64,000 bases of DNA from an uncultured Porphyromonadaceae bacterium (GTDB taxonomy: Bacteria > Bacteroidota > Bacteroidia > Bacteroidales > Muribaculaceae), in assembly GCA_947175645.1 (NCBI GenBank), contig CAMWNP010000002.1:96835-160834 (forward strand), given 5' to 3'. This document shows, piece by piece, positions 228-64,000 of this stretch (position 1 is the first letter of the stretch; each line of letters opens with the position of its first letter). Made by a program: the position numbers and the translations under genes. The notes under the pieces are model-generated. The model had not been told where the DNA came from, made no database searches, and was given only the letters and a program-made list of their open reading frames with translations.

Positions 228-239
228 GTTGGTAATAGT

Positions 240-707: not shown

Positions 708-709
708 GC

Positions 710-1499: not shown

Positions 1500-1502
1500 G
1501 GC

Positions 1503-1850: not shown

Positions 1851-1863
1851 GCTCTATTCGGGT

Positions 1864-3036
1864 TTAGGCGTTTTCCTCTGCGTTGCTCTTGGCATTAGCT
1901 GCCTCAAGGTTACGCACGCGGTAATTGACAATGCCCTCAATCTCGGTAATGGCAGGGAGCGCACGCCAGCTTGCCTGTGTGTACTCGCCTGCCTGCTGGC
2001 CTGTGCTTTCGCCAACCTGCCACTTGGCCACGCGAATGCCATGGTCGGCATCCATGTAGGTTACATCGGGTTCGGGGATAATGCTGTTATCCTCAAATGC
2101 AGGCTGCACCTCGCCGATTATGCCAGCAGGCTTAAAGCACAGCACATCATCGTTGTAGGGGTTGATGAGCGTTTCCTTACGTTTGCCATCCTCGGCCACA
2201 GAGTTGCGCTTGTTTACGATGGTAAATGCAGGCAGCTCAAAGGCAGCAAGCATATTGGTAAGCTCCACAGGGGTTACAGGCTGCCCCGACTTGTCGCTGC
2301 CCTTGATAGCACGGCGCACGGAGGGCAGGTTGATAAGCCAGTAGTACACGGAGGGGGAGATAAGAGTTTCTCCAAACGAAATGCCTTTGTTAGCAAAGGT
2401 GTAACGAATGTCGGCAAGCTCCTCAAAGGGGTTAATCTTGCTCTCGTTGCCTTTCTCCCACGCCGTAGTTGCCACAAGTTTGTTGGCATCGGGCATATCG
2501 TAGTCCACCTTGTAGCGGCGGCCATCGGGGTTATTGAGCTGGGGCTTGAACTCGGCCACACCGCCATTGGAGAGAGCTTGCAGGATAATGTGGTCGGCAG
2601 TATCCTTACAGCCCAAATATGCTTCACGCACATCCTTAATAAGCAGCTTTTTGACCTGTGCCATTTTCTGCTGGTCGGTGTAGCGTGGGCTTTCCAGTAC
2701 CTCCAGCAACTTGCGGAGGTTGTCGGCAGACATGGGGAACTTATGACCCATGCGCGGGATTTCGCCCTCAAAGGTGGTAAAACCATCAGTGGGGCGTGTA
2801 GGAGTGGCCGCATTGTTGCCGATAACGCTTGCCATAAAGCGCACTCTGTACTTTGACTGGAGTGTCTTACAGGTAAGCCCCATTTGAGGCAGGTTAAAGT
2901 CAAACCAGCGGTCAACGTAAAGCTGCTCAAAGAGAGCCTTCTGCTGCTGGCTGGCCGTGTCAAACATGATTTTGAGGGTGGCCAGCAGGCTCACAGGAAT
3001 AGTGGGTAAATTTACTTTGTTAAAAATTGACTCCAT
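1864..3036 (-). CDS. Major capsid protein (390 aa)
   Basis: Size and position after scaffold-like and decoration-like genes and before the neck genes. It is the only gene with a strong SD-like AAAGGAGGTA sequence 6 nt upstream of the ATG. Confidence 0.7.
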   Translation of the reverse strand: MESIFNKVNLPTIPVSLLATLKIMFDTASQQQKALFEQLYVDRWFDFNLPQMGLTCKTLQSKYRVRFMASVIGNNAATPTRPTDGFTTFEGEIPRMGHKFPMSADNLRKLLEVLESPRYTDQQKMAQVKKLLIKDVREAYLGCKDTADHIILQALSNGGVAEFKPQLNNPDGRRYKVDYDMPDANKLVATTAWEKGNESKINPFEELADIRYTFANKGISFGETLISPSVYYWLINLPSVRRAIKGSDKSGQPVTPVELTNMLAAFELPAFTIVNKRNSVAEDGKRKETLINPYNDDVLCFKPAGIIGEVQPAFEDNSIIPEPDVTYMDADHGIRVAKWQVGESTGQQAGEYTQASWRALPAITEIEGIVNYRVRNLEAANAKSNAEENA

Positions 3037-3055
3037 GTGTTACCTCCTTTCGGTT

Positions 3056-3691
3056 TTAGAGCGACTGGGTATAGGCTACCTTGGTACCCTTGAGCAGGTT
3101 GCCCTCAAGGTACTTGGCAGGCACAGGGGGCACGCGGCGAGCGTAAATCTCGCCACAACCGCTGTCGCGTGTAACATTGATTTGGGTATCGGCCAGCTCC
3201 TCCTTGACCTCGGCACTCTCGTAGGTGTCAATGGTAATGCTGTTGGGTTCTGCCACCAGCTTTACGTTGGTGCCATCAGCCACAACCTCAAAGAGTGCGG
3301 AGCCTACTGCAAGACCAGTAATGGCCTTGGAAAGCGTAATCTCCATGCCAGCCTCGGTGTTGGCCACCGCTGTGATGCTGGGGGAGTTTGCGAGAGTGGC
3401 AGAGAGGTCGCTTTGCACCGTATCGCCCACCATAAACAGGGGCTTGCTGAACTCATCTGCCTCCAGCGTTACCTTTTTGGCATCGGTACCAATGGCCACT
3501 ACTCGCGCACTCTTGATGAGCTTGCCGTAACGTGTGGCCTCGTTTACACAGGCCAGCGTGCCAAAGGGAACCAAAGCACCAACAGGCAGGTTGGTTTGAG
3601 CAGGGTCAAGCGTAAAGCCTCCTGTAACCATTACAGGGGGCTGGGTGCTGCACGGACGGGTGCCACCATAGCTTCTTTTCTTGGGTTTCAT
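3056..3691 (-). CDS. Capsid accessory or decoration-like protein (211 aa)
   Basis: It sits between the scaffold-like gene and the capsid gene, like lambda D before E. No motif recognised. Confidence 0.35.
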   Translation of the reverse strand: MKPKKRSYGGTRPCSTQPPVMVTGGFTLDPAQTNLPVGALVPFGTLACVNEATRYGKLIKSARVVAIGTDAKKVTLEADEFSKPLFMVGDTVQSDLSATLANSPSITAVANTEAGMEITLSKAITGLAVGSALFEVVADGTNVKLVAEPNSITIDTYESAEVKEELADTQINVTRDSGCGEIYARRVPPVPAKYLEGNLLKGTKVAYTQSL

Positions 3692-3705
3692 TGCTCTGTG
3701 ATTAA

Positions 3706-4302
3706 TTAGTTTGTTTTTACCTCACACTCGGCAAGCAGCTCCTTGGCCATGTCTGCCTCTGCCTGTTTCTGCGTTTCCGCAGCCACATCTTTGCTGGCAG
3801 GCTTTAAGCCTCGGTCTACAAGGCTCTGCTTGTACCTGCCCAAATAATCTGCCACATCGGCATCTTCGGGAATGGTTACAAACTCCATGTCGGCCTCTGT
3901 AAGACCCAGCTTTTTGGTCTCGGTGGCAATGAGGTTGTCGCGGTTGCTCTTTGCGAGCTGTGCCTGCAACTGGGAAATAGTTGTGGCCTGCTCATCAAAT
4001 TTGGTTTGGAACTTGGCGGTTACTGCCTCCACAATAGCCTCCACGTTGGCCTCAAGCGGTTTCTCGGTGGGCGGTGTTGCAGGGGGAGTGTTAGGCTTTT
4101 TGCCCTGCGCCCATCGGGTAGCCTCGGCCTGCATGGCTTTAAGGACAGGCAGGTACTCATTTGCGCGTTGCTCAATAGCCTCATCGGTCGCATCTTCTCC
4201 CAGCCCATTGCTTGCTATGGTGGCAATTTGCTGGATAGAATCCTTGGAAAGCCCCATGTCCGTGCATTTGGCCTCCAATACCTGTAAAAGTTTTTTCTTC
4301 AT
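3706..4302 (-). CDS. Scaffolding-like protein (198 aa from the ATG at 4302; the track ORF starts at a TTG at 4332)
   Basis: Helical, charged, Ala/Glu/Lys-rich. It is the first gene of the capsid block. Confidence 0.5.
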   Translation of the reverse strand: MKKKLLQVLEAKCTDMGLSKDSIQQIATIASNGLGEDATDEAIEQRANEYLPVLKAMQAEATRWAQGKKPNTPPATPPTEKPLEANVEAIVEAVTAKFQTKFDEQATTISQLQAQLAKSNRDNLIATETKKLGLTEADMEFVTIPEDADVADYLGRYKQSLVDRGLKPASKDVAAETQKQAEADMAKELLAECEVKTN

Positions 4303-4533
4303 TGCTCTACTTGCTTTAAGTGTTCGCTGCAAAGGTAATCAGTAATTTAATATGCGTACAAATACTGAACGCCTAATTTTTGAAAGTAATTCAACCTCAA
4401 TTCACTGCGAATATTGTTAAAGACTGTTAAATATTGCGGATTTTTGGCTTGAAAGTTTGGTATCTTAATTCTTTCCACTAACTTCGCAGCGTACAAAATA
4501 TGAACGCTTTTAGAAAATAAAAAAATCAAATAT

Positions 4534-5052
4534 ATGTTACAGCACGAATTTGAGAGCCGCGTAGGCATTGAGGTAAGCGCAAAAGAGTATGCCGCCATTG
4601 AGCAGGTTTACATGAGCAGCGATGTAGAAAAGGATGAGTTTTGCAAGCTGTGGGCAAAAATGAACCGTGTGCGCATTGCCAATGCTAAAGCCCAGCAAAA
4701 AGCCGCCGCCCAGTTTAAGGCACTCCGCATTGAGGAACAGGTAATTGTAAAAATGCTGGAGTTAGCAGAGCAGCGAGCTAACAACACAGGCTGCACGCTC
4801 CCTGTTAGCGACACCAACATTGATGCAAACAAGGTACGCGCACGCTACGAAGAAGCAGACGGCTTTACGGTGTATTTGGTATTGCGTGATACAGGAGCCG
4901 CAATTACTCACACCTATACAGAGGCCATGAATGAGGCAAAGGCTTTTAGCTCAAGCAATCCTACGGTTTATGAGTTTTTTGGCAACCGCACACTTAACCA
5001 TGGCTACTACAAAGTTGCTGGCTACACCTCTAACCCGAAACAAATATTTTAA
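4534..5052 (+). CDS. Hypothetical protein (172 aa), first gene of the plus-strand accessory island
   Basis: ATG start. It is divergent from the scaffold gene. Confidence 0.6.
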   Translation: MLQHEFESRVGIEVSAKEYAAIEQVYMSSDVEKDEFCKLWAKMNRVRIANAKAQQKAAAQFKALRIEEQVIVKMLELAEQRANNTGCTLPVSDTNIDANKVRARYEEADGFTVYLVLRDTGAAITHTYTEAMNEAKAFSSSNPTVYEFFGNRTLNHGYYKVAGYTSNPKQIF

Positions 5053-5071
5053 CACATAAATACTTACAGCT

Positions 5072-5302
5072 ATGATGATGTGCAGTGTATATGACAAGAC
5101 CACCCAAAAGAGCGAAACCTTTTGCAGCGTGGCAGCCGCTAAAAAACGTATGAAACAACTCCTCAAAGAGGGGCATGAGGTAAGCGGCAGTAAGACTAAA
5201 GTTTACTCAAACGGCGATTGGGTACCGTGCGGAGAAATAACCCTTACAGGCTCCAATGCCGTATTTGTAGCCAATACCAAACAAACTAAAGCAGGATATT
5301 AA
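5072..5302 (+). CDS. Hypothetical protein (76 aa)
   Basis: ATG start, followed by a hairpin at 5310..5330. Confidence 0.5.
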   Translation: MMMCSVYDKTTQKSETFCSVAAAKKRMKQLLKEGHEVSGSKTKVYSNGDWVPCGEITLTGSNAVFVANTKQTKAGY

Positions 5303-5309
5303 CTAACAC

Positions 5310-5330
5310 GGGGCTGGGCTGGCCAGCCCC
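5310..5330 (+). terminator. Stem-loop GGGGCTGG-GCTGG-CCAGCCCC
   Basis: Perfect 8-bp GC-rich stem directly after the stop at 5302. No clear U-tract. Confidence 0.45.
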
Positions 5331-5345
5331 ATAACAAACAAAAAT

Positions 5346-5579
5346 ATGAACGCAGCACGCAGAAAAGAACTTAACAAGCTCATTGAGCAGCTTGAGGATA
5401 TTAAGAGCCAAATTGAAAACCTCCAGCAGGAGGAACAGGACTCATACGACAACCTCCCCGAAAGCCTACAGGACAGCGAGCGTGGCGAGCGTATGCAGGA
5501 GGCCGCAGATGAGCTGGAGAATGCAGCCAGCAGCGTAGATGAAGTAATTGACTACATTAACAACGCAATAGAGCAATAA
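5346..5579 (+). CDS. Hypothetical acidic coiled-coil protein (77 aa)
   Basis: ATG start. Heptad-like Glu/Leu/Gln-rich sequence. Confidence 0.55.
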   Translation: MNAARRKELNKLIEQLEDIKSQIENLQQEEQDSYDNLPESLQDSERGERMQEAADELENAASSVDEVIDYINNAIEQ

Positions 5580-5581
5580 CC

Positions 5582-5785
5582 ATGGCAAAGAGAGTTAAGG
5601 CAAAGGCTCGCGTAAAGGTTATAACCGAATTTGGCAAATGGTGCCTTATGGAGATACGCGGCCTCAAGGAGGGCACAGAGCTTGAGGGCAGTTACAACCC
5701 TCGCAACAAAGCATTTGATTTTAGCTGGAATGGGCAAGACGCTATGCTTTGGGTAGGGCAAAATGCAGAACTAATAACAGAATAA
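5582..5785 (+). CDS. Hypothetical protein (67 aa)
   Basis: ATG 3 nt after the previous stop. Confidence 0.5.
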   Translation: MAKRVKAKARVKVITEFGKWCLMEIRGLKEGTELEGSYNPRNKAFDFSWNGQDAMLWVGQNAELITE

Positions 5786-5789
5786 CAAT

Positions 5790-6221
5790 ATGGCACAGGA
5801 AAGAAATAACACAGCCCTTGTGGCTACCACGCTCACGGCAGAGCAACAGCAGTACCTCAACGACATGGCCGCTTATGGCAAGAGGTTGCAAGAGTTAGCC
5901 TACAACTCGGTAGGCAAATGGGTGGCGGCAGGCTATGCCGATGGCAGAAATAATGTTGCAGGTATGTATTGCTATTGCGGCATGGGCAAAGGTTACAAGG
6001 GTGCGCCCATTGTGCCTGCCAGCGGTAATGCTGTAGTGTTTGCCTCAAAGGAGGCTGCCCAGCGTAAAGCCAGCCAGCTCAAGTATCAAAACGGCAGAGG
6101 CGAGCGCATACGGCTCACGGTAATACCTGCAAACGATTACTTTTGGCTGCTCTTTGATGATTTATGCAATACCATGAGCGTAGCAGAGCGCATGATGGTA
6201 GAGAACAATAAAAGCAAGTAA
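5790..6221 (+). CDS. Hypothetical protein (143 aa)
   Basis: ATG start, tightly packed with neighbours, followed by a hairpin. Confidence 0.55.
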   Translation: MAQERNNTALVATTLTAEQQQYLNDMAAYGKRLQELAYNSVGKWVAAGYADGRNNVAGMYCYCGMGKGYKGAPIVPASGNAVVFASKEAAQRKASQLKYQNGRGERIRLTVIPANDYFWLLFDDLCNTMSVAERMMVENNKSK

Positions 6222-6228
6222 TAATACT

Positions 6229-6252
6229 GGGGCTGGAGTAGTAGCCAGCCCC
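6229..6252 (+). terminator. Stem-loop GGGGCTGG-AGTAGTAG-CCAGCCCC
   Basis: Same 8-bp stem sequence as 5310..5330. It follows the stop at 6221. Confidence 0.45.
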
Positions 6253-6267
6253 ACAACACAAATAACC

Positions 6268-6534
6268 ATGGCAAGAGATAGCAAAACAAAGCAGCTTAAC
6301 GCACAGCTCCAAATAGTACGCCTTGATGGCCTCAAGTTTAAGGCACCCCTCGGCACAGCCAGCACTCGCGGCTGGGGGCTTTACATTGAGGGCAAGGGCT
6401 ACCTCAAATTTAAGAGCGACACCGATTATGTGCCTTATGCTCCCTGTGGAGGCCGTAAAGCACTGGAGAGCATACTGGCCGCTGGTGGCCTCCTCAACTA
6501 CGACAGCATTGAGTTTATTAACCCTGTAAAGTAA
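6268..6534 (+). CDS. Hypothetical protein (88 aa)
   Basis: ATG start in the same-strand gene array. Confidence 0.5.
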   Translation: MARDSKTKQLNAQLQIVRLDGLKFKAPLGTASTRGWGLYIEGKGYLKFKSDTDYVPYAPCGGRKALESILAAGGLLNYDSIEFINPVK

Positions 6535-38507: not shown

Positions 38508-38511
38508 TTTG

Positions 38512-38583
38512 TACTCCCGAAGGGAATCGAACCCTTATCATTGGAACCGGAATCCAGTATTCTATCCATTGAACTACAGGAGC
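38512..38583 (-). tRNA. tRNA-Arg (anticodon CCG), 72 nt, no encoded CCA
   Basis: Cloverleaf folded by hand: acceptor stem of 7 bp (2 G-U), D arm GTTC/GAAT, anticodon loop TTCCGGT, T arm AAGGG-TTCGATT-CCCTT. Confidence 0.8.
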
Positions 38584-40682: not shown

Positions 40683-41096
40683 TTAGCGTCTTTGTTTCAT
40701 GTAACTGCGCTTTTTAATGAGGTACATATTGAGCGCATCCACATCTTCCTGCGACACGGCCTCCCTTGCACTGCGGAACTCAAAGCCAGCCATATCTCGG
40801 ATAAACACCACCTTTATAATGGTATGGAATGGGAAACGTAATTTGGGATTTTGTAGCGTTTTGAGTAGCTTTTTACTGCTTGTCCAAAACGCCGTTTCTG
40901 CCTCCTCAAGCTCCCACTTAAATTTTACTACGGTGCGTTTGCCATTCTCGGTTTCTACGCCGTGGGAAAAGCCAGTACACCAAATAGGCTTGTTTATTAC
41001 CTCATCAATACTGGGGTAATCGCCTGTAGGGCGTTCAGAGCTTGCGTCTTCTCCTTGCAGCGAGAAATCGGCAAAATCAAATGTTTCCTCTGCCAT
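40683..41096 (-). CDS. Hypothetical protein (137 aa) immediately downstream of the DGR RT
   Basis: ATG 13 nt after the RT stop. No motif recognised. Confidence 0.5.
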   Translation of the reverse strand: MAEETFDFADFSLQGEDASSERPTGDYPSIDEVINKPIWCTGFSHGVETENGKRTVVKFKWELEEAETAFWTSSKKLLKTLQNPKLRFPFHTIIKVVFIRDMAGFEFRSAREAVSQEDVDALNMYLIKKRSYMKQRR

Positions 41097-41109
41097 ATTT
41101 ATGTTGCCA

Positions 41110-42576
41110 TTATGCTAAAGGTATGTTGTGGAGTTTACAATCGGCATCCACCATAGCGCGGAGTGCCTTGCGCTCTGAAAGGAAATCAAGGTAGGGCTGC
41201 TTTTTGGCCTCATCCTCTATGCCCAGCATAGCGGCGTTGTAGTCGTTGAGCAGCTTGGCCTCCTCGGTGCTGCTGTACTTGGCAGCAATGAGGTTTTCCA
41301 GTATGGTATTGGCCGTAACTGGAGCAGCCACCAGCAGGCTGTCATACACGTTTACCTTAACCTTTTTGCCCTCCTCATCGGCACGCTCCTCAATGTGCTG
41401 GTTGTGGTTGTAGAGCGTTGTGCCTTTGATGCGGTCAATCACATCAAACGTGGGCTGTGCCTCGGCACTGGTGATGCCCACTCTCAAGTTTTCTTTACTC
41501 ATTGGGTTTAACTGGTTTATTGTTAATTGTAATATGCGTTCAAAATGCTCTTTAGAGCAGTGTTGTAGCCAGCCATAATGTGCGGCCAGCTCCATTTTAA
41601 CCTCATGCTCCTGCGTAATGCCATAGCGTTTTTGCACTTGGCGCAACTTACGCCAGTAGGTCATAAGTATGCTTCTGCGAGCCAGCACATTGTAATGGTT
41701 GCTCTTGTAGCCCACGAAATCAATAGAGCGAGCATCTACAGGGAAAATTTGCCAGTTGCCTTTTATGGTCAGCTCCAGCTCCCTTAACAGGTAAGCCTCA
41801 ATTTGCTCAAATACCCAGTGCAAAGCCTCCTTATTGCCACACAGGAAAACCATATCATCCATGTAGCGGAAATAATACAGGCGTGCATGAAAGAGCTTTT
41901 TAACCATTGGCGTTAGCCACTCCTTTACCCAGTGGTCAAATGGTGTTAGGTACCAGTTGGCAAAATGCTGGGAGGTAAGGCGGCCAATAGGTATGCCCTC
42001 ATTGCCCTCGGTGCTATCTACTATTGTATCCATGAGCCAAAGCAAATGCCTATCGCCATAGCTTTTGCGGAAAATCAGTTTGAGTTTATCATGCTTTATG
42101 GTGTCATAATAATGGTGTACGTCTAATTTTAAGCAGTATTTTGTACCCTTTTTATCCTTTTGCAATGTACGGTTAAGGTCGCGGAGGCAAGCATGAATAC
42201 CTCGCCCTTTTATGCAGGCGTAGGTATTGGCAATAAAGAGTTTACGCAAATCATCTTCAATAACATCAATGAGGCAGTGGTCAATTATGCGGTCGGGCAT
42301 GAGCTTGGCTATTTTTAGCACTCGCGTTTTAACCTTGCCGCCTGTTTTCTCCTTAATGATTTTCTTTGTATAAGGAGAGGGTATGTACTTGCGCTTATCA
42401 AGCAGCTCCCATACCTCGGTTATTGCCTCAATAAAGCCCTCGTTTAGTAGCCGCTGCACATCGTGCCTGTGCCGCTTACCCCGTATGGTGTTTAGGGTTG
42501 CGTGCAGCACGTTTTGAGGGTCGCATACTTTCCAGTAGCTGTTGTTATCGTAGCTGTGGTAAATTTTATGTGCCAT
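41110..42576 (-). CDS. DGR reverse transcriptase (488 aa) with a C-terminal extension of about 125 aa
   Basis: The DGR-specific motif IGRLTSQHFANWYL lies at residues 197-210; IGRLTSQ itself is 41968..41988. YMDD is at 41854..41865. The gene is adjacent to the TR. Confidence 0.9.
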   Translation of the reverse strand: MAHKIYHSYDNNSYWKVCDPQNVLHATLNTIRGKRHRHDVQRLLNEGFIEAITEVWELLDKRKYIPSPYTKKIIKEKTGGKVKTRVLKIAKLMPDRIIDHCLIDVIEDDLRKLFIANTYACIKGRGIHACLRDLNRTLQKDKKGTKYCLKLDVHHYYDTIKHDKLKLIFRKSYGDRHLLWLMDTIVDSTEGNEGIPIGRLTSQHFANWYLTPFDHWVKEWLTPMVKKLFHARLYYFRYMDDMVFLCGNKEALHWVFEQIEAYLLRELELTIKGNWQIFPVDARSIDFVGYKSNHYNVLARRSILMTYWRKLRQVQKRYGITQEHEVKMELAAHYGWLQHCSKEHFERILQLTINQLNPMSKENLRVGITSAEAQPTFDVIDRIKGTTLYNHNQHIEERADEEGKKVKVNVYDSLLVAAPVTANTILENLIAAKYSSTEEAKLLNDYNAAMLGIEDEAKKQPYLDFLSERKALRAMVDADCKLHNIPLA

Positions 42577-42774
42577 TGCTGTTATAAGAGCTTTCGCGCT
42601 CGCGGCTGGTGCCGCGCTCTACTCGCACTTTACAATCTCCATATTCTTTTGCCAGTAACCAGCCCCACTAATGCTGGGGCGTGGCTACTCTTGAGAGGCA
42701 TGGTCTTGGTGGGGTTGTTGAGTGGCCTATACTCCCGAAAGAGCGTAGAACCGAAAAAGTAATAAACGGTATAA

Positions 42775-42880
42775 GGGGGAAACCATAATTCGCATTCGTA
42801 TTCGAACACCGATTACTCGTATTCGCACAGCGGACACCCGAATTCTCCGCATTATTCGCATTAGCAGCAGAGAGGAGCTT
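42775..42880 (-). repeat. DGR template repeat (TR)
   Basis: Intergenic, between the target gene and the RT. Coding sense reads KLLSAANANNAENSGVRCANTSNRCSNTNANYGFPL with nine AAT codons. Both VRs differ from it at its adenines. Confidence 0.9.
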
Positions 42881-43035: not shown

Positions 43036-44466
43036 TCAAATGCCCTCGGAGGCCGAAAATTCAAGGCACAGGGGGAAACCACAACCCGCAAGCGTAATCG
43101 AACACCGATAACTCGTATCCGCACAGCGGACACCCGAATTCTCCGCACCATGCGCAGTAGCAGCAGAGAGGAGCTGTCTCCAGCCCTCCTCGTTGTTATC
43201 ATCTGTAGCAGGGTAAGAGTGCCACCAGTAATCGCCGTAGTTTTTATTGGCAGCTCCACCTACAACGCTGTTGGGGAAAGTCCAGCCATTAGCATACCCC
43301 ATTTCGGAGATATAGCCAGCGTTTACAGGCACGGCTCCCAGCTCCTCATAACCTGCCAGCGTGCGCACTCGGTCATTGGCAGGGTTGGCAAACTGGGCAG
43401 GGTCATTGCAAAGGAAAATAAGGCCATCGCCTCCGTCACTGGGCTTGCTGTACCATACGCGCACATCATCGTTATGCTCCCACATATACCTTTGCGGAGC
43501 CTCCCAGCCACGGTAACTGGCCACCTGTACCACTTTATCCACGCCTGTTTTCCAGTTCTTAATGGTATAGTCCACCACGCCAGTATTGTTGCCCAGCTTG
43601 GCAGTTACGCCACAAGGGATAAATGGATAGTAGCCGTTATATGTGTTCCACTCGGTACCATTTACCAGTGTGCCCATACCCAGCCCACCCTGCGCAAAAC
43701 CATCTTCTGTTTTGGCAGAGTTAAATGCAGTATCGCTGCTCAAATCGCCAAACTCAATGGCCATGAGCCAGCTCATTTCTTCGCGGAAATGCCAGCCTCC
43801 AAAGTGCCACATGGCACCCAGCGAGCGGCAGCGTGTGCGGAACGTGGCCATGTTGGCACTGGCACTACTCATGGGCATACCCTGCACAGAGCGGTAGGTG
43901 CCATCCCATGCCGTTTGGTTGTTGCCCCCTCGGTACTCGGCAGCATTACTGGTAAGCTCCAGCAAGCCGTTGGCATCACGCTTGAGTGAGCCGTCTGCAT
44001 TCCACTGGAGGAAAGAGGCACAGGTGGGCAGGTTGGTTGTACGGTTACAGGTAGCGAGCCATGGGGAGCGCGACCGCTCTTTCATGTGGATAAATCCAGG
44101 CAGTGGCACCTCGCTAATGGCTACCAGCATATAATCGCCATCAAACTCAATGCGGCGGTAATAGTCGGGCTTGTAGAGCTGCACAATGCCGTCAAGGGCA
44201 TTAAGGCGAGCCGCACCGCCTCCCTCCTTGAGGGTGCTGTCGTTGGCTCCCAGCCAGTAATTAACACTGCCATCGGCATTGGCTATGTAACGCCGTATGC
44301 GCTTTTGTATGGGCAGCGAGCGGTGCAGGTCAAGGTTGCCCACGCGCTCCAGCTTGCCATCAGCTACGCAATGCCCTCCGTTCTTGAGGTTAATGCGTAT
44401 GCCATACCACGAATCTTTGTAGGGGAATTGTGGCACGGTGTTTCCTATTCCTATAAGTGTACCCAT
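43036..44466 (-). CDS. DGR target protein 1: tail-fibre / receptor-binding-like protein (476 aa) with C-terminal VR1
   Basis: Last gene of the tail module. Residues 431-466 match the TR sequence with adenine-site substitutions. Confidence 0.85.
   Translation of the reverse strand: MGTLIGIGNTVPQFPYKDSWYGIRINLKNGGHCVADGKLERVGNLDLHRSLPIQKRIRRYIANADGSVNYWLGANDSTLKEGGGAARLNALDGIVQLYKPDYYRRIEFDGDYMLVAISEVPLPGFIHMKERSRSPWLATCNRTTNLPTCASFLQWNADGSLKRDANGLLELTSNAAEYRGGNNQTAWDGTYRSVQGMPMSSASANMATFRTRCRSLGAMWHFGGWHFREEMSWLMAIEFGDLSSDTAFNSAKTEDGFAQGGLGMGTLVNGTEWNTYNGYYPFIPCGVTAKLGNNTGVVDYTIKNWKTGVDKVVQVASYRGWEAPQRYMWEHNDDVRVWYSKPSDGGDGLIFLCNDPAQFANPANDRVRTLAGYEELGAVPVNAGYISEMGYANGWTFPNSVVGGAANKNYGDYWWHSYPATDDNNEEGWRQLLSAATAHGAENSGVRCADTSYRCSITLAGCGFPLCLEFSASEGI
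43071..43176 (-). repeat. DGR variable repeat 1 (VR1)
   Basis: 13 differences from the TR over 106 nt. All are at positions where the TR has A on the coding strand. Confidence 0.9.
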
Positions 44467-44467
44467 G

Positions 44468-44809
44468 TTATTTGGTATTTACAATTAGTTGTGCTGCGCT
44501 ACCTGCACCCCAGTAAATATCGTAGCTGTTAAGCAGCTCCTCACTGGGGGCTATTTCAACAATGCAAAGCTCTACCCAGCCATAAAGAGTTACAGGCACC
44601 TCGCTAAACTCCTCCTCGGCATAGAGCTTGCAGTTAAGCAATACATCACGCTCCATGGTGGAGAGAGTTTTGGGGCGTACATAGACTGAAAAGGGCTTGC
44701 TCTCCTTGAGCCTAAAGCCATTGGAGAGGCTGCTGATTTTGCCCTTGGAAACGATACGGCCTGCGCTCATTTCGGGGCTGATATAGTTATTGTTATACTT
44801 GTTGCTCAT
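44468..44809 (-). CDS. Hypothetical protein (113 aa) upstream of DGR target 1
   Basis: ATG start. Its stop lies 1 nt before the target gene's ATG. Confidence 0.5.
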   Translation of the reverse strand: MSNKYNNNYISPEMSAGRIVSKGKISSLSNGFRLKESKPFSVYVRPKTLSTMERDVLLNCKLYAEEEFSEVPVTLYGWVELCIVEIAPSEELLNSYDIYWGAGSAAQLIVNTK

Positions 44810-57333: not shown

Positions 57334-57864
57334 TTAGGTGCTGGATTTGGCAGGGAATGTGGCCGTCTTTTTGCGTGCTCTCATCGTTTTCACGCCAGCC
57401 TTGGTGGGCTTGAGCGGAGTAACGGTAAAGTCCACAAGGTTAATGCCCTGAGCTGACATATCAGCGTTAAGCACGGCCTCAATGTCGGCACGCGGTATGG
57501 TGTAAACCAAACCGATTTCGGGCACAACTCGGATACTGGCCTCAATATCCTCATCGGTATCGCTCCAGCTCCATTCCATGTCATCGCCAGTGCCAGTTGT
57601 CTCGCCACCCAAATAGGCTTTGAGGAACGTGGGGTCGGGGTCCATTATGGAGAAAGTAAGGATAGGCACCTTTTTACGCTTGCGGCGTGCTTCGGGTGCG
57701 CTCTGCCCCTCCTCATAATGCTCTGTTACCTCGGCCTTTTCCTGCGTCATTTTGCAGGTGTTTTGGTAGGTCTTGCCGATTTTGCTGTAGGCAGTAGCCT
57801 CGCCGCCATCAGCAGCGATTTTGCCAACCTGTATTTCCGAAAGACCCAGTGTAATTACTCCCAT
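57334..57864 (-). CDS. Major tail (tube) protein (176 aa)
   Basis: Position between the neck genes and the chaperone, with a strong terminator after it. Confidence 0.6.
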   Translation of the reverse strand: MGVITLGLSEIQVGKIAADGGEATAYSKIGKTYQNTCKMTQEKAEVTEHYEEGQSAPEARRKRKKVPILTFSIMDPDPTFLKAYLGGETTGTGDDMEWSWSDTDEDIEASIRVVPEIGLVYTIPRADIEAVLNADMSAQGINLVDFTVTPLKPTKAGVKTMRARKKTATFPAKSST

Positions 57865-57876
57865 GTTGGTAATAGT

Positions 57877-58344
57877 TTATGAGTTATGAAAATTAAAGCG
57901 TATTTTGAACCAAATGCGGTGGCAATTAAGGGCAGCCTCCTCTATTACATCCTGTGCAACACACTCAAACGACCAGCCATTTTCACAGTAGTATTTTTTG
58001 AGTGAGGCGTATGCAAGCCCTGCAAGCTGCTTGATACGGTCGCTCGCGGCCTCCGTGTCTGCTGGCTCGCTTGCGTGTGTTGTGCAGGTGTTAATGTCGG
58101 GTACATAGATATTCACATTGCTGGTGCCAAACTGCACGCTGCCACTCTCAATGGAGAGGCTGCTGATAACGCAATCCTCTACCTTGGGGGGCTGGTTGCG
58201 CTGGGGCTTTTTGCTCTTGGTTATAGAGCCTGTAAGCTGCTTGGCCAGCTCGGATTGAGTTAGCACCACATAGAGTATATCATCTTGCAGCGTGTTAAAC
58301 TGCATATCCTCTTGCAATGGAATTTCTTCTACCTTTTTTGCCAT
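57877..58344 (-). CDS. Copy of 240..707 (neck or tail-terminator-like protein)
   Basis: Exact copy, offset +57,637. Confidence 0.45.
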   Translation of the reverse strand: MAKKVEEIPLQEDMQFNTLQDDILYVVLTQSELAKQLTGSITKSKKPQRNQPPKVEDCVISSLSIESGSVQFGTSNVNIYVPDINTCTTHASEPADTEAASDRIKQLAGLAYASLKKYYCENGWSFECVAQDVIEEAALNCHRIWFKIRFNFHNS

Positions 58345-58346
58345 GC

Positions 58347-58832
58347 TTAATTGGCGTTTTTATAAATTTGAGTTTTGAGCATTTGCATGAGCTTGGGAAC
58401 TCGCTGGAGGGCGTAACGCTCTGCGCTATCCAGCACATCCTTGTTAAGGCTCTCTACATAGTGGGCATAGTGCATACCAGCTACCACAATGAGGGCGTAG
58501 CCCTTTGTAAAGCGTTTTGCCAGCTCCTCTGCAAGAGCTTGACCTTGGAGAATACCCTTGCCGTTTGCTGCATCAATTACCTTGGAGGCCACGCGCTCCT
58601 CAAAGTTTTTGCAGATTATATCGCCATTCTTTACCAGCACATAGCCAATAGAGTTGCGCAAATTTCCTGTAATGTCGTTATAGGTTCCTTGCTCCCTCGC
58701 AATCTTTACGCACTCCTCGCCAATAAACTGCATAACCGTTTCAATGGCTCGGTGTACGCGCAGTGCGTACTCGGCAAAGGTGTTGTGTACCTCGCCTTTG
58801 CCAAAGGCAGCACTAAACCCATATTTTGCCAT
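58347..58832 (-). CDS. Copy of 710..1195 (HK97 gp10-like)
   Basis: Exact copy, offset +57,637. Confidence 0.55.
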   Translation of the reverse strand: MAKYGFSAAFGKGEVHNTFAEYALRVHRAIETVMQFIGEECVKIAREQGTYNDITGNLRNSIGYVLVKNGDIICKNFEERVASKVIDAANGKGILQGQALAEELAKRFTKGYALIVVAGMHYAHYVESLNKDVLDSAERYALQRVPKLMQMLKTQIYKNAN

Positions 58833-59136
58833 AATGCTTATAGCGTTTGTATCGCATTACTTTGCCCTCCACCTGTACCGTGCCATCCGCGCCCAATACT
58901 CGGATTTGGGCGTTTACTGGCACGGCAGGGGCGTTGGCAGGAAAGAAAATGTTGGAACTCTTGTTGATGGCACGCGCTGCAACCGTTGAAACCTCCTCGC
59001 CTCCATCGCTCGGCTCCTCGCGGCACATGGTTAGTGTTCTCCACTCGGAGGTACCACCCACCAAATCGCCTACGTCATTGCGCTCGGCCTCGGTGGTTAC
59101 AAGCATTTGGAGTGTATCGGTATATCGGCTGGCCAT
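58813..59136 (-). CDS. Copy of 1176..1499 (head closure-like)
   Basis: Exact copy, offset +57,637. Confidence 0.45.
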   Translation of the reverse strand: MASRYTDTLQMLVTTEAERNDVGDLVGGTSEWRTLTMCREEPSDGGEEVSTVAARAINKSSNIFFPANAPAVPVNAQIRVLGADGTVQVEGKVMRYKRYKHYGKIWV

Positions 59137-59139
59137 GGC

Positions 59140-59487
59140 TTAAAATCTGTTTGAGGCGTGCGTTAGCGTTGTTACCGTTTCGGGCAGGAACTCCTCTACA
59201 GGCACCCCAGCCTCGCGGCACAGGAACGCAATGCGCTCCTTGAGCTTGTCATTGTAGCTCTGCGACCACTCGGCCTCTTTCTCACTGGAGAGTGAGAGGT
59301 ATTTAACCAGTACCAGCACTGCTGCCAGCGCAATAACGCGGTCGTTGTCGGGGGTGTAGTCCTCCTTTGCGGCCAGTGTAGCACCAGCACGCTTGCAAGC
59401 GGAGAGCAGAGCCTTTTCAAGCTCCAGCTCATTATCGCCGCTGCAATAGGGTAATACCTCGCTGGCTATTGCCTGTAGATTGTTCAT
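59140..59487 (-). CDS. Copy of 1503..1850 (connector or adaptor)
   Basis: Exact copy, offset +57,637. Confidence 0.45.
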   Translation of the reverse strand: MNNLQAIASEVLPYCSGDNELELEKALLSACKRAGATLAAKEDYTPDNDRVIALAAVLVLVKYLSLSSEKEAEWSQSYNDKLKERIAFLCREAGVPVEEFLPETVTTLTHASNRF

Positions 59488-59500
59488 GCTCTATTCGGGT

Positions 59501-60673
59501 TTAGGCGTTTTCCTCTGCGTTGCTCTTGGCATTAGCTGCCTCAAGGTTACGCACGCGGTAATTGACAATGCCCTCAATCTCGGTAATGGCAGGGAGCGCA
59601 CGCCAGCTTGCCTGTGTGTACTCGCCTGCCTGCTGGCCTGTGCTTTCGCCAACCTGCCACTTGGCCACGCGAATGCCATGGTCGGCATCCATGTAGGTTA
59701 CATCGGGTTCGGGGATAATGCTGTTATCCTCAAATGCAGGCTGCACCTCGCCGATTATGCCAGCAGGCTTAAAGCACAGCACATCATCGTTGTAGGGGTT
59801 GATGAGCGTTTCCTTACGTTTGCCATCCTCGGCCACAGAGTTGCGCTTGTTTACGATGGTAAATGCAGGCAGCTCAAAGGCAGCAAGCATATTGGTAAGC
59901 TCCACAGGGGTTACAGGCTGCCCCGACTTGTCGCTGCCCTTGATAGCACGGCGCACGGAGGGCAGGTTGATAAGCCAGTAGTACACGGAGGGGGAGATAA
60001 GAGTTTCTCCAAACGAAATGCCTTTGTTAGCAAAGGTGTAACGAATGTCGGCAAGCTCCTCAAAGGGGTTAATCTTGCTCTCGTTGCCTTTCTCCCACGC
60101 CGTAGTTGCCACAAGTTTGTTGGCATCGGGCATATCGTAGTCCACCTTGTAGCGGCGGCCATCGGGGTTATTGAGCTGGGGCTTGAACTCGGCCACACCG
60201 CCATTGGAGAGAGCTTGCAGGATAATGTGGTCGGCAGTATCCTTACAGCCCAAATATGCTTCACGCACATCCTTAATAAGCAGCTTTTTGACCTGTGCCA
60301 TTTTCTGCTGGTCGGTGTAGCGTGGGCTTTCCAGTACCTCCAGCAACTTGCGGAGGTTGTCGGCAGACATGGGGAACTTATGACCCATGCGCGGGATTTC
60401 GCCCTCAAAGGTGGTAAAACCATCAGTGGGGCGTGTAGGAGTGGCCGCATTGTTGCCGATAACGCTTGCCATAAAGCGCACTCTGTACTTTGACTGGAGT
60501 GTCTTACAGGTAAGCCCCATTTGAGGCAGGTTAAAGTCAAACCAGCGGTCAACGTAAAGCTGCTCAAAGAGAGCCTTCTGCTGCTGGCTGGCCGTGTCAA
60601 ACATGATTTTGAGGGTGGCCAGCAGGCTCACAGGAATAGTGGGTAAATTTACTTTGTTAAAAATTGACTCCAT
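59501..60673 (-). CDS. Copy of 1864..3036 (major capsid protein)
   Basis: Exact copy, offset +57,637. Confidence 0.7.
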   Translation of the reverse strand: MESIFNKVNLPTIPVSLLATLKIMFDTASQQQKALFEQLYVDRWFDFNLPQMGLTCKTLQSKYRVRFMASVIGNNAATPTRPTDGFTTFEGEIPRMGHKFPMSADNLRKLLEVLESPRYTDQQKMAQVKKLLIKDVREAYLGCKDTADHIILQALSNGGVAEFKPQLNNPDGRRYKVDYDMPDANKLVATTAWEKGNESKINPFEELADIRYTFANKGISFGETLISPSVYYWLINLPSVRRAIKGSDKSGQPVTPVELTNMLAAFELPAFTIVNKRNSVAEDGKRKETLINPYNDDVLCFKPAGIIGEVQPAFEDNSIIPEPDVTYMDADHGIRVAKWQVGESTGQQAGEYTQASWRALPAITEIEGIVNYRVRNLEAANAKSNAEENA

Positions 60674-60692
60674 GTGTTACCTCCTTTCGGTT

Positions 60693-61328
60693 TTAGAGCG
60701 ACTGGGTATAGGCTACCTTGGTACCCTTGAGCAGGTTGCCCTCAAGGTACTTGGCAGGCACAGGGGGCACGCGGCGAGCGTAAATCTCGCCACAACCGCT
60801 GTCGCGTGTAACATTGATTTGGGTATCGGCCAGCTCCTCCTTGACCTCGGCACTCTCGTAGGTGTCAATGGTAATGCTGTTGGGTTCTGCCACCAGCTTT
60901 ACGTTGGTGCCATCAGCCACAACCTCAAAGAGTGCGGAGCCTACTGCAAGACCAGTAATGGCCTTGGAAAGCGTAATCTCCATGCCAGCCTCGGTGTTGG
61001 CCACCGCTGTGATGCTGGGGGAGTTTGCGAGAGTGGCAGAGAGGTCGCTTTGCACCGTATCGCCCACCATAAACAGGGGCTTGCTGAACTCATCTGCCTC
61101 CAGCGTTACCTTTTTGGCATCGGTACCAATGGCCACTACTCGCGCACTCTTGATGAGCTTGCCGTAACGTGTGGCCTCGTTTACACAGGCCAGCGTGCCA
61201 AAGGGAACCAAAGCACCAACAGGCAGGTTGGTTTGAGCAGGGTCAAGCGTAAAGCCTCCTGTAACCATTACAGGGGGCTGGGTGCTGCACGGACGGGTGC
61301 CACCATAGCTTCTTTTCTTGGGTTTCAT
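60693..61328 (-). CDS. Copy of 3056..3691 (capsid accessory-like)
   Basis: Exact copy, offset +57,637. Confidence 0.35.
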   Translation of the reverse strand: MKPKKRSYGGTRPCSTQPPVMVTGGFTLDPAQTNLPVGALVPFGTLACVNEATRYGKLIKSARVVAIGTDAKKVTLEADEFSKPLFMVGDTVQSDLSATLANSPSITAVANTEAGMEITLSKAITGLAVGSALFEVVADGTNVKLVAEPNSITIDTYESAEVKEELADTQINVTRDSGCGEIYARRVPPVPAKYLEGNLLKGTKVAYTQSL

Positions 61329-61342
61329 TGCTCTGTGATTAA

Positions 61343-61939
61343 TTAGTTTGTTTTTACCTCACACTCGGCAAGCAGCTCCTTGGCCATGTCTGCCTCTGCC
61401 TGTTTCTGCGTTTCCGCAGCCACATCTTTGCTGGCAGGCTTTAAGCCTCGGTCTACAAGGCTCTGCTTGTACCTGCCCAAATAATCTGCCACATCGGCAT
61501 CTTCGGGAATGGTTACAAACTCCATGTCGGCCTCTGTAAGACCCAGCTTTTTGGTCTCGGTGGCAATGAGGTTGTCGCGGTTGCTCTTTGCGAGCTGTGC
61601 CTGCAACTGGGAAATAGTTGTGGCCTGCTCATCAAATTTGGTTTGGAACTTGGCGGTTACTGCCTCCACAATAGCCTCCACGTTGGCCTCAAGCGGTTTC
61701 TCGGTGGGCGGTGTTGCAGGGGGAGTGTTAGGCTTTTTGCCCTGCGCCCATCGGGTAGCCTCGGCCTGCATGGCTTTAAGGACAGGCAGGTACTCATTTG
61801 CGCGTTGCTCAATAGCCTCATCGGTCGCATCTTCTCCCAGCCCATTGCTTGCTATGGTGGCAATTTGCTGGATAGAATCCTTGGAAAGCCCCATGTCCGT
61901 GCATTTGGCCTCCAATACCTGTAAAAGTTTTTTCTTCAT
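61343..61939 (-). CDS. Copy of 3706..4302 (scaffolding-like)
   Basis: Exact copy, offset +57,637. Confidence 0.5.
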   Translation of the reverse strand: MKKKLLQVLEAKCTDMGLSKDSIQQIATIASNGLGEDATDEAIEQRANEYLPVLKAMQAEATRWAQGKKPNTPPATPPTEKPLEANVEAIVEAVTAKFQTKFDEQATTISQLQAQLAKSNRDNLIATETKKLGLTEADMEFVTIPEDADVADYLGRYKQSLVDRGLKPASKDVAAETQKQAEADMAKELLAECEVKTN

Positions 61940-62170
61940 TGCTCTACTTGCTTTAAGTGTTCGCTGCAAAGGTAATCAGTAATTTAATATGCGTACAAAT
62001 ACTGAACGCCTAATTTTTGAAAGTAATTCAACCTCAATTCACTGCGAATATTGTTAAAGACTGTTAAATATTGCGGATTTTTGGCTTGAAAGTTTGGTAT
62101 CTTAATTCTTTCCACTAACTTCGCAGCGTACAAAATATGAACGCTTTTAGAAAATAAAAAAATCAAATAT

Positions 62171-62689
62171 ATGTTACAGCACGAATTTGAGAGCCGCGTA
62201 GGCATTGAGGTAAGCGCAAAAGAGTATGCCGCCATTGAGCAGGTTTACATGAGCAGCGATGTAGAAAAGGATGAGTTTTGCAAGCTGTGGGCAAAAATGA
62301 ACCGTGTGCGCATTGCCAATGCTAAAGCCCAGCAAAAAGCCGCCGCCCAGTTTAAGGCACTCCGCATTGAGGAACAGGTAATTGTAAAAATGCTGGAGTT
62401 AGCAGAGCAGCGAGCTAACAACACAGGCTGCACGCTCCCTGTTAGCGACACCAACATTGATGCAAACAAGGTACGCGCACGCTACGAAGAAGCAGACGGC
62501 TTTACGGTGTATTTGGTATTGCGTGATACAGGAGCCGCAATTACTCACACCTATACAGAGGCCATGAATGAGGCAAAGGCTTTTAGCTCAAGCAATCCTA
62601 CGGTTTATGAGTTTTTTGGCAACCGCACACTTAACCATGGCTACTACAAAGTTGCTGGCTACACCTCTAACCCGAAACAAATATTTTAA
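62171..62689 (+). CDS. Copy of 4534..5052 (hypothetical)
   Basis: Exact copy, offset +57,637. Confidence 0.6.
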   Translation: MLQHEFESRVGIEVSAKEYAAIEQVYMSSDVEKDEFCKLWAKMNRVRIANAKAQQKAAAQFKALRIEEQVIVKMLELAEQRANNTGCTLPVSDTNIDANKVRARYEEADGFTVYLVLRDTGAAITHTYTEAMNEAKAFSSSNPTVYEFFGNRTLNHGYYKVAGYTSNPKQIF

Positions 62690-62708
62690 CACATAAATAC
62701 TTACAGCT

Positions 62709-62939
62709 ATGATGATGTGCAGTGTATATGACAAGACCACCCAAAAGAGCGAAACCTTTTGCAGCGTGGCAGCCGCTAAAAAACGTATGAAACAACTCCT
62801 CAAAGAGGGGCATGAGGTAAGCGGCAGTAAGACTAAAGTTTACTCAAACGGCGATTGGGTACCGTGCGGAGAAATAACCCTTACAGGCTCCAATGCCGTA
62901 TTTGTAGCCAATACCAAACAAACTAAAGCAGGATATTAA
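62709..62939 (+). CDS. Copy of 5072..5302 (hypothetical)
   Basis: Exact copy, offset +57,637. Confidence 0.5.
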   Translation: MMMCSVYDKTTQKSETFCSVAAAKKRMKQLLKEGHEVSGSKTKVYSNGDWVPCGEITLTGSNAVFVANTKQTKAGY

Positions 62940-62946
62940 CTAACAC

Positions 62947-62967
62947 GGGGCTGGGCTGGCCAGCCCC
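62947..62967 (+). terminator. Copy of the stem-loop at 5310..5330
   Basis: Exact copy, offset +57,637. Confidence 0.45.
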
Positions 62968-62982
62968 ATAACAAACAAAAAT

Positions 62983-63216
62983 ATGAACGCAGCACGCAGA
63001 AAAGAACTTAACAAGCTCATTGAGCAGCTTGAGGATATTAAGAGCCAAATTGAAAACCTCCAGCAGGAGGAACAGGACTCATACGACAACCTCCCCGAAA
63101 GCCTACAGGACAGCGAGCGTGGCGAGCGTATGCAGGAGGCCGCAGATGAGCTGGAGAATGCAGCCAGCAGCGTAGATGAAGTAATTGACTACATTAACAA
63201 CGCAATAGAGCAATAA
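62983..63216 (+). CDS. Copy of 5346..5579 (hypothetical acidic coiled coil)
   Basis: Exact copy, offset +57,637. Confidence 0.55.
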   Translation: MNAARRKELNKLIEQLEDIKSQIENLQQEEQDSYDNLPESLQDSERGERMQEAADELENAASSVDEVIDYINNAIEQ

Positions 63217-63218
63217 CC

Positions 63219-63422
63219 ATGGCAAAGAGAGTTAAGGCAAAGGCTCGCGTAAAGGTTATAACCGAATTTGGCAAATGGTGCCTTATGGAGATACGCGGCC
63301 TCAAGGAGGGCACAGAGCTTGAGGGCAGTTACAACCCTCGCAACAAAGCATTTGATTTTAGCTGGAATGGGCAAGACGCTATGCTTTGGGTAGGGCAAAA
63401 TGCAGAACTAATAACAGAATAA
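63219..63422 (+). CDS. Copy of 5582..5785 (hypothetical)
   Basis: Exact copy, offset +57,637. Confidence 0.5.
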   Translation: MAKRVKAKARVKVITEFGKWCLMEIRGLKEGTELEGSYNPRNKAFDFSWNGQDAMLWVGQNAELITE

Positions 63423-63426
63423 CAAT

Positions 63427-63858
63427 ATGGCACAGGAAAGAAATAACACAGCCCTTGTGGCTACCACGCTCACGGCAGAGCAACAGCAGTACCTCAACGA
63501 CATGGCCGCTTATGGCAAGAGGTTGCAAGAGTTAGCCTACAACTCGGTAGGCAAATGGGTGGCGGCAGGCTATGCCGATGGCAGAAATAATGTTGCAGGT
63601 ATGTATTGCTATTGCGGCATGGGCAAAGGTTACAAGGGTGCGCCCATTGTGCCTGCCAGCGGTAATGCTGTAGTGTTTGCCTCAAAGGAGGCTGCCCAGC
63701 GTAAAGCCAGCCAGCTCAAGTATCAAAACGGCAGAGGCGAGCGCATACGGCTCACGGTAATACCTGCAAACGATTACTTTTGGCTGCTCTTTGATGATTT
63801 ATGCAATACCATGAGCGTAGCAGAGCGCATGATGGTAGAGAACAATAAAAGCAAGTAA
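63427..63858 (+). CDS. Copy of 5790..6221 (hypothetical)
   Basis: Exact copy, offset +57,637. Confidence 0.55.
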   Translation: MAQERNNTALVATTLTAEQQQYLNDMAAYGKRLQELAYNSVGKWVAAGYADGRNNVAGMYCYCGMGKGYKGAPIVPASGNAVVFASKEAAQRKASQLKYQNGRGERIRLTVIPANDYFWLLFDDLCNTMSVAERMMVENNKSK

Positions 63859-63865
63859 TAATACT

Positions 63866-63889
63866 GGGGCTGGAGTAGTAGCCAGCCCC
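63866..63889 (+). terminator. Copy of the stem-loop at 6229..6252
   Basis: Exact copy, offset +57,637. Confidence 0.45.
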
Positions 63890-63904
63890 ACAACACAAAT
63901 AACC

Positions 63905-64000
63905 ATGGCAAGAGATAGCAAAACAAAGCAGCTTAACGCACAGCTCCAAATAGTACGCCTTGATGGCCTCAAGTTTAAGGCACCCCTCGGCACAGCCAGC
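63905..64000 (+). CDS. Partial copy of 6268..6534 (hypothetical), cut by the window edge
   Basis: Exact copy of the first 32 codons, offset +57,637. Confidence 0.5.
   Translation, partial: MARDSKTKQLNAQLQIVRLDGLKFKAPLGTAS

Follow-up and report, generated by a model that had tools for sequence, protein, structure and literature searches.

A complete diversity-generating retroelement without Avd, with a fused reverse transcriptase extension and a candidate accessory protein, in a phage genome

A stretch of 64,000 nucleotides (nt) was analyzed in this study (GCA_947175645.1, contig CAMWNP010000002.1, positions 96,835-160,834 of the forward strand; hereafter the window). Its minus strand encodes a complete and intact diversity-generating retroelement (DGR), consisting of a target gene, a variable repeat (VR), a template repeat (TR), plus a reverse transcriptase (RT). 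The cassette has the layout target-VR-TR-RT and possesses no Avd, the accessory protein of most DGRs. The reading that we favor, as a reasonably probable one, is that a small protein of 137 amino acids (aa), here named p137, would stand in for Avd, and that the C-terminal extension of the RT, here named ext, would work with the tail protein. Most of the doubt on this reading falls on the role of p137, which is proposed from comparisons of sequence and gene content. The features under discussion are as follows.

43036..44466, minus strand: DGR target gene encoding a tail protein of 476 aa, whose 3' end holds the VR; matches phrog_5302 (E 1.3e-69)
43070..43175, minus strand: VR, a direct repeat of the TR inside the 3' end of the target gene
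42774..42879, minus strand: TR, the non-coding copy of the 106-nt direct repeat
42577..42773, minus strand: TR-RT spacer, which forms the 3' non-coding portion of the DGR RNA, with conserved blocks and no credible open reading frame (ORF)
42566..42686, minus strand: RT-17-like RNA, ending over the RT start codon; matches Rfam RF03020 (28.5 bits, E 0.0036)
41503..42576, minus strand: RT proper, residues 1-358; matches RVT_1 (E 9e-14) and phrog_1423 (E 1e-93), with IGRLTSQ and YMDD
41110..41502, minus strand: ext module, residues 359-488, stop included; begins at a conserved Met and matches phrog_11557 (E 3.5e-27)
40683..41096, minus strand: p137, candidate DGR accessory; matches phrog_29953 (E 5.8e-17) and phrog_19665 (E 1.5e-7)
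44468..44809, minus strand: ORF of 113 aa (p113); matches phrog_22750 (E 2e-22)

The DGR cassette and the absence of Avd

The TR and VR form a 106-nt direct repeat with 89% identity, and all of the mismatches between them (12/12) are placed at TR adenines. The RT is encoded by an ORF of 488 aa (41110..42576, minus strand) adjoining the TR, in which RVT_1 covers residues 83-274 and phrog_1423 residues 12-356. IGxxxSQ and YxDD motifs mark DGR-type RTs, and both are present. The core of a DGR, that is, a TR/VR pair with adenine-placed mismatches and a DGR-type RT next to the TR, is thereby found in the window. The target stop lies about 155 nt from the TR and the TR about 198 nt from the RT ATG; only GTG-started frames running through the TR, and no credible ORF, were found in these two intervals. 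The original prediction, made from the letters and their ORFs, had described both intervals in this way with positions that prove right to within a base, and had correctly placed p137 at 13 nt past the RT stop and p113 ahead of the target gene. On the minus strand, the order of genes is a tail-fibre gene of 1526 aa, p113, the tail-protein gene of 476 aa, the RT ORF of 488 aa and p137. Further along come genes for a membrane protein of 199 aa, an amidase and a DUF6549 protein, then tRNA-Arg and integrase genes.

Avd (PF05635) is a basic four-helix bundle of about 110-130 aa. No Avd or HRDC match was found by Pfam at E<=0.1 in the RT with ext included, in p137 or in p113, and ext scanned by itself matched nothing in Pfam at E<=0.01. 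When the whole genome was searched in six frames with PF05635, no match appeared on this contig and none above the cut-off anywhere. Avd was also absent from all 14 records of related phages (0/14) and from the Foldseek matches in the PDB to the models of ext and p137, and no HRDC was found for ext, p137 and p113 in PDB sequence searches or for the two models in Foldseek fold searches. Neither model is an all-helical basic bundle: ext is composed of four strands and three helices with an isoelectric point (pI) of 5.2, and p137 is a predicted five-strand barrel plus helix with a pI of 6.2. Pfam, whole-genome and fold searches thus bear out that no recognisable Avd exists at the locus. A standard architecture had been left possible by the original prediction, should the extension, the 137-aa or the 113-aa protein prove homologous to Avd or HRDC; profile searches of the three and fold searches of the first two showed no such homology. 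Two sub-threshold matches to PF05635 (Avd/23S-IVP) were noted on other contigs of the same genome (G000:C5:22489-22710 and G000:C4:60129-60341), with 28-29 bits vs a cut-off of 33.8, both in open frames of 191-195 aa.

The RT extension and the 137-aa protein

The RT ORF had been described as carrying a C-terminal segment of about 125 aa without RT-like motifs. This holds, and the segment can be defined as a distinct module. The last 130 residues (MSKENL...) contain no RT motifs. By profile they match phrog_11557, a family of 130-aa proteins with unknown function, to which 70/70 diverse relatives of ext match as well. Searching with ext alone gave 25 clusters of stand-alone homologues of about 129-130 aa. 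The AlphaFold2 model of ext, built from an alignment of 70 sequences, has a predicted local distance difference test (pLDDT) score of 96 and displays a four-stranded sheet followed by three helices. Its comparison to the PDB by Foldseek gave no significant match (best E 0.57), and only uncharacterised phage proteins were matched in BFVD. Among the 70 members of the family, 67 have no Pfam family at E<=0.01, and the other three show weak matches to unrelated families (E 0.004-0.009). Sequence, fold and charge together rule out ext as an Avd or HRDC protein. A borderline PDB sequence match of ext to 5emi, a cell-wall hydrolase (E 0.009), was taken as chance because Foldseek gave no support for it.

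The extension was one of the originally proposed sources of the accessory function, and ext would then be an Avd substitute tethered to the RT. We regard this as unlikely. The association of ext with the RT is close. Fused forms make up 52 protein clusters, and ext lies directly 3' of the RT in 26 of 27 close loci and in 74 of 80 loci of distant members (about 30% identity), where a DGR-type RT ends -1 to +44 nt upstream; the two often overlap or are translationally coupled. Moreover, relatives at the level of fold come right after the RT in two crAss-like phages, and p137 is never found between RT and ext. However, 36 of the 76 informative loci in a sample centred on the RT have no ext, and p137 directly follows the RT in 35 of them. 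In addition, complete phage genomes without an RT keep ext beside a homologous tail protein, and ext tracks a tail-protein module of about 430 aa and not the RT. The protein is also acidic and resembles no nucleic-acid-binding fold.

Loci with ext and without an RT (L003, L028, L033-35, L044, L064, L104 and L106; Porphyromonas phage005b is among such phages) have ext starting 4-28 nt past a tail-protein gene. In all of them except L033-35, the C-terminus of this tail protein is lectin-like and of the VR type. RVT_1 (PF00078) was found nowhere in the whole records of these RT-less phages, including two records with a rated completeness of 100% and the complete genome of Porphyromonas phage005b. 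Homologues of the target tail protein precede the ext gene in RT-bearing and RT-less phages alike, and loci with a small DGR target of 150-190 aa have no ext. We conclude from this distribution that ext is not DGR-specific and that its primary role is independent of reverse transcription, because complete RT-less phages keep it after a homologous tail protein. It most likely serves the tail protein, e.g. in assembly or as a partner. The extension is therefore probably not the accessory, given the 36 of 76 RT-centred relatives that lack it and the complete RT-less phages that retain it. Profile searches over 401 genomes of the phylum found ext in 3/401 and phrog_19665 in 1/401, which is too sparse for statistics.

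Some further loci show other arrangements. Five IMG/VR loci with the RT-p137 layout and without ext (L162, L164, L172, L173 and L193) have targets of 150-190 aa located about 600 nt upstream of the RT. These small targets possess a VR motif of the form ...GSRLC(F/L)... followed by a further tail of about 25 aa, unlike the large tail-protein targets in ext-bearing loci. Two ext-like genes were found in one phage, cr50_1 (L029, MT774375, 557-4650). One encodes a protein of 114 aa that overlaps the RT end and is similar to ext by fold only; the other, of 128 aa, is similar by sequence and lies after a gene for a 780-aa protein and before a holin gene. The annotated RT of the crAss-like phage cr56_1 (L032 3989-4993, NC_055890) has five in-frame stops with translation table 11, which makes it probable that one of the stop codons is decoded as an amino acid in this phage. 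A holin gene directly follows its RT, and neither ext nor p137 is present.

The two families matched by p137, phrog_29953 and phrog_19665, are small phage protein families of unknown function, and PDB sequence search returned nothing for p137 or p113. The AlphaFold2 model of p137 (pLDDT 83.5) has the topology b1-b2-b3-helix-b4-b5, followed by a long basic C-terminal helix. By this predicted topology, p137 may be an oligonucleotide/oligosaccharide-binding (OB)-like barrel. Homologues are typically 96-111 aa in length (range to 137), with pI 7.8-9.4, and mostly basic; the p137 of the window carries an added acidic N-terminal tail.

The distribution of p137 follows the RT. It was found in 75 of the 76 loci of the RT-centred sample, and in 36 of those loci it starts 2-30 nt past the RT with no ext between. 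Conversely, an RT lies upstream in all 79 informative loci of a sample centred on p137 (79/79). After dereplication of the RT clusters at 70% identity, p137 is present in 35/40. No p137 was found in the whole records of RT-less phages which keep ext. The family occurs as one copy per phage and only beside this RT clade, in three gene orders when the samples are pooled: RT-ext-p137 in 106 loci, RT-p137 in 36 and target-p137-TR-RT-ext in 32 (abbreviated as PRE). In the PRE loci, p137 is located between the target and the TR, which is the slot of avd in the Bordetella element. A-specific TR/VR mismatches in PRE loci (24/26, 16/17, 16/17, 15/16 and 21/23) suggest that these DGRs are active. The PRE-type p137 is linked to the type in the window by hhalign with 89% probability (E 2e-6), and proteins from all three orders match phrog_19665.

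One lineage (L172) encodes p137 as an in-frame fusion with the RT. The fusion proteins form a cluster of 14 members, ten of them with 422-428 aa, and come from independent sources (NCBI, JGI, ENA and Logan). The RT C-terminus therefore accepts fusion to either of two small proteins, ext or p137, in different lineages. Because of its RT-dependent distribution, its position in the avd slot and its fusion to the RT in one lineage, we infer that p137 is the best accessory candidate. The original prediction had also named the two unassigned ORFs as possible accessories. This is plausible for the 137-aa ORF on account of its RT-dependent distribution, and does not hold for the 113-aa ORF. The latter occurs in 62/190 RT-bearing loci, about a third, and in 0/36 of the RT-p137 loci; it was set aside for this patchy distribution.

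It could also be that no protein accessory is needed, the RT and the RT-17-like RNA being sufficient, with ext and p137 as merely syntenic phage genes. We consider this quite improbable. Accessory-free architecture A accounts for about 29% of DGRs (PMC5758913), and a few RT loci do have no p137 (L178, L110, L113, L115, L116, cr50_1, cr55_1 and cr56_1). Yet p137 shifts its position and never leaves the cassette, is absent from every RT-less relative examined, is accompanied by an RT in each of the 79 p137-centred loci and has been joined to the RT in the L172 lineage. Mere synteny would strand p137 in some RT-less phages, as is seen with ext.

Several points weigh against p137 as the stand-in for Avd. 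The top Foldseek matches of its model are single-stranded DNA-binding (SSB)/OB proteins (PrgE, Pf3 SSB and RPA70N), none of them significant (E >= 0.12), and the OB-like assignment follows from predicted topology. The p137 of the window is near neutral overall; its basic parts are limited to the core (pI 9.25) and the C-terminal helix (pI 9.8). The family is not universal, because loci with RT and ext but no p137 exist, namely L110, L113, L115, L116 and the crAss-like cr50_1 and cr55_1; L110, L113 and L116 belong to a group of large phages, and p137 is likewise missing beside the RTs of L178 and cr56_1. The locus samples were drawn from IMG/VR and are phylogenetically clumped, and the evidence for the candidate is that of comparative genomics. 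As to ext, it is always the immediate 3' neighbour of the RT where an RT is present, the order RT-p137-ext was never seen, and cr50_1 and cr55_1 encode proteins of the ext fold right after the RT (Foldseek E 1e-4 and 1e-6). On account of the absent order and of these two phages, ext may have an additional RT-linked role.

The spacer RNA and the junction of RT and ext

A structured RNA had been expected in the TR-RT spacer, and it was found there by covariation across relatives and homology to RT-17. The minimum free energy of the spacer is -63.3 kcal/mol (z = -2.77 vs shuffles), and the conserved blocks between TR and RT start are common to 14 relatives. The RT-17 score of the window, 28.5 bits, is below the gathering score of RF03020, 40.4 bits, mainly because a 21-nt insertion lengthens the first hairpin. 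Homologous spacers from four relatives score above it (L027, 51.2 bits; L010, 51.0; L008 and L013, both 47.9). RNAalifold alone gave the first helix only; for the complete structure, the Rfam consensus was adopted and then checked by counting pairs. With the RT-17 consensus mapped on the alignment, 91% of the cells are paired vs 23-44% with the partners slid, and compensatory changes are seen in 8 of the 14 pairs, a value as high as which was reached in 0/500 shuffles. The element includes the helices P1 and P2 and a conserved GGCAAAAGAAUA stretch. Covariation, Rfam matches and fold stability against shuffles thus establish a conserved structured RNA in the spacer. The copy in the window is best read as a divergent homologue of the catalogued RT-17 motif and not as a member by threshold.

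The extension of the RT is, by comparison with its relatives, a separate phrog_11557 gene fused in frame in the clade of the window. The in-frame junction with the conserved Met is found in the window and in L012, L013-15, L016/17, L019/20 and L021. In L008/9, L023-26 and Bacteroides phage Versailles, RT and ext are two ORFs that share 38 nt, the overlap being in the +1 frame. They are divided by a stop in L010/22, which derive from a Dysgonomonas genome. A search with the full-length protein gave 52 clusters of RT-ext fusions with 460-499 aa and 55-93% identity. The fused RT forms fall in one clade with a support of 100/100, in which five of six representatives are fused. The exact 488-aa protein belongs to a public cluster of 131 members, mostly of 488 aa and from many contigs. 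The fusion is real, because the exact protein recurs in this cluster and the fused forms make up one well-supported clade. We conclude that the joining arose by loss of the intervening stop in the clade of the window. Free ext may still be translated from an internal AUG at 41502, to judge from the retained Met and its A/T-rich context.

The original prediction had allowed for a sequencing or assembly error merging two genes into the 488-aa ORF; in close relatives the frames of RT and ext do differ, or a stop lies between them, but this possibility can be dismissed, as the exact sequence occurs on several independent contigs in the 131-member cluster, 52 fused clusters diverge to 55-93% identity, and a second identical copy lies on the same contig.

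In two other loci (L005 5554-6841 and L006 845-2132), the RT was called as pieces of 145 aa and 286 aa, although in tblastn the complete RT aligns within a single frame. These RTs may be broken, or frameshifted as described for Quimbyvirus, for which a frameshifted RT has been reported (PMC8008677).

The two ends of the window, 1-6363 and 57638-64000, are 100% identical, with a period of 57,637 nt, and an identical copy of the region of RT-ext and p137 lies 57.6 kb upstream in this contig (G000:C2, about 78.8-82.2 kb, L040). The identical ends and the identical upstream copy show that at least two head-to-tail copies of a phage genome of about 57.6 kb are present on the contig, either as a tandem prophage or as an assembled concatemer. 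A tRNA-Arg(CCG) gene is located at 38511-38583 of the window, between the lysis module and the phage integrase gene. Megablast of the locus against phage records gave no match.

Proposed mechanism and comparison with known systems

With p137 as the stand-in for Avd, the RNA of TR and spacer would be bound through its RT-17-like fold. The RT would prime cDNA synthesis and make the cDNA adenine-mutagenic together with p137, which would act as a nucleic-acid-binding cofactor contacting the RT and the RNA or cDNA in place of Avd, while ext would work with the tail protein. Beyond the window, the chances seem about even that the phrog_19665/29953 family is a new class of DGR accessory, in which a small OB-like nucleic-acid binder that docks onto the C-terminus of the RT would take over from Avd across a large, lineage 3-like clade of Avd-less DGRs from Bacteroidota phages.

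It was already known that Avd can be lacking and that RTs may carry extensions, and the RNA motif had been catalogued before. The extension as a fused phrog_11557 gene, and an RT-dependent OB-like family in this clade, are both apparently undescribed in the literature searched, where the CH1 and PAG1-4 sequences of Wu et al. 2018 lie outside the comparison. To our knowledge, all mechanistic work on DGRs so far has been on the Avd-dependent Bordetella system. How cDNA synthesis is primed and made adenine-mutagenic matters for the Avd-less DGRs, which are about a quarter of all; for gut Bacteroidota phages, reports frequently describe DGRs that have no Avd. The p137 family is a specific and testable candidate for them. 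Moreover, one class of unexplained C-terminal extensions of DGR RTs is accounted for, as a fused neighbouring gene. The fusion also matters for annotation, because fusions and overlapping ORFs can pass for frameshifted or broken RTs.

The DGR of the window resembles that of Bordetella phage BPP-1 (mtd-avd-TR-Sp-brt) in its tail-protein target with a C-terminal VR, in the adenine-specific TR mismatches, in the structured spacer RNA between TR and RT, and in a small partner protein that the cassette encodes, for which p137 is the candidate here. It differs in that no Avd was found in the window, the contig or the 14 related phage records. The candidate partner is a predicted beta-barrel, in contrast to a four-helix bundle, and its gene lies 3' of the RT, to which an additional module is fused.

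In the survey of Wu et al. 2018 (PMC5758913), avd is absent from 26% of DGRs, and as a rule from lineage 3 DGRs (target-TR-RT, from Bacteroides and relatives). In the same survey, about 20% of the RTs of DGRs bear unexplained C-terminal extensions of up to about 150 aa. One lineage 3 example without avd in the literature is crAssphage LMMB (PMC7290462), and its RT matches the RT of the window by tblastn with 40% identity. By layout, the cassette matches lineage 3 and architecture A1, with target-VR-TR-RT in Bacteroidota phages and without avd, HRDC or MSL. However, lineage 3 DGRs have been described as accessory-free, whereas the conserved, RT-linked phrog_19665/29953 family is found here and a fused phrog_11557 gene accounts for the extension. 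The CH1 accessory (lineage 3a, Bacteroides), known only from avd-less DGRs of Bacteroides relatives, is a small acidic protein of 160-169 aa with a pI of about 4.7 and no motifs (PMC5758913). Ext is also acidic and has no motifs, but has 130 aa and a pI of 5.2, and the p137 homologues have 96-137 aa and are mostly basic, in a comparison with CH1 by size, charge and motifs.

The spacer RNA shares with the Rfam RT-17 motif the conserved blocks CCuuGCCuCa ... GGCAAAA ... GUGCUGGUAGA ... GCGAAAGC, the same two helices and the position just 5' of the RT gene, and four relatives pass the gathering score. The window copy differs in its lower score (28.5 vs 40.4 bits) and in the 21-nt insertion in the first hairpin.

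An isolated relative is Bacteroides phage Versailles (ON453897). It has the same series of tail fibre, small ORF, target, TR, RT, ext, p137, 199-aa protein, endolysin and DUF6549 genes, all of which are annotated as hypothetical. In contrast to the window, the RT of Versailles has 395 aa and its ext 142 aa, and the two are separate ORFs in different frames with the 38-nt overlap. The defined RT-17-like RNA, together with this cultured relative on Bacteroides caecimuris, provides a system in which the proposed role of p137 can be tested.

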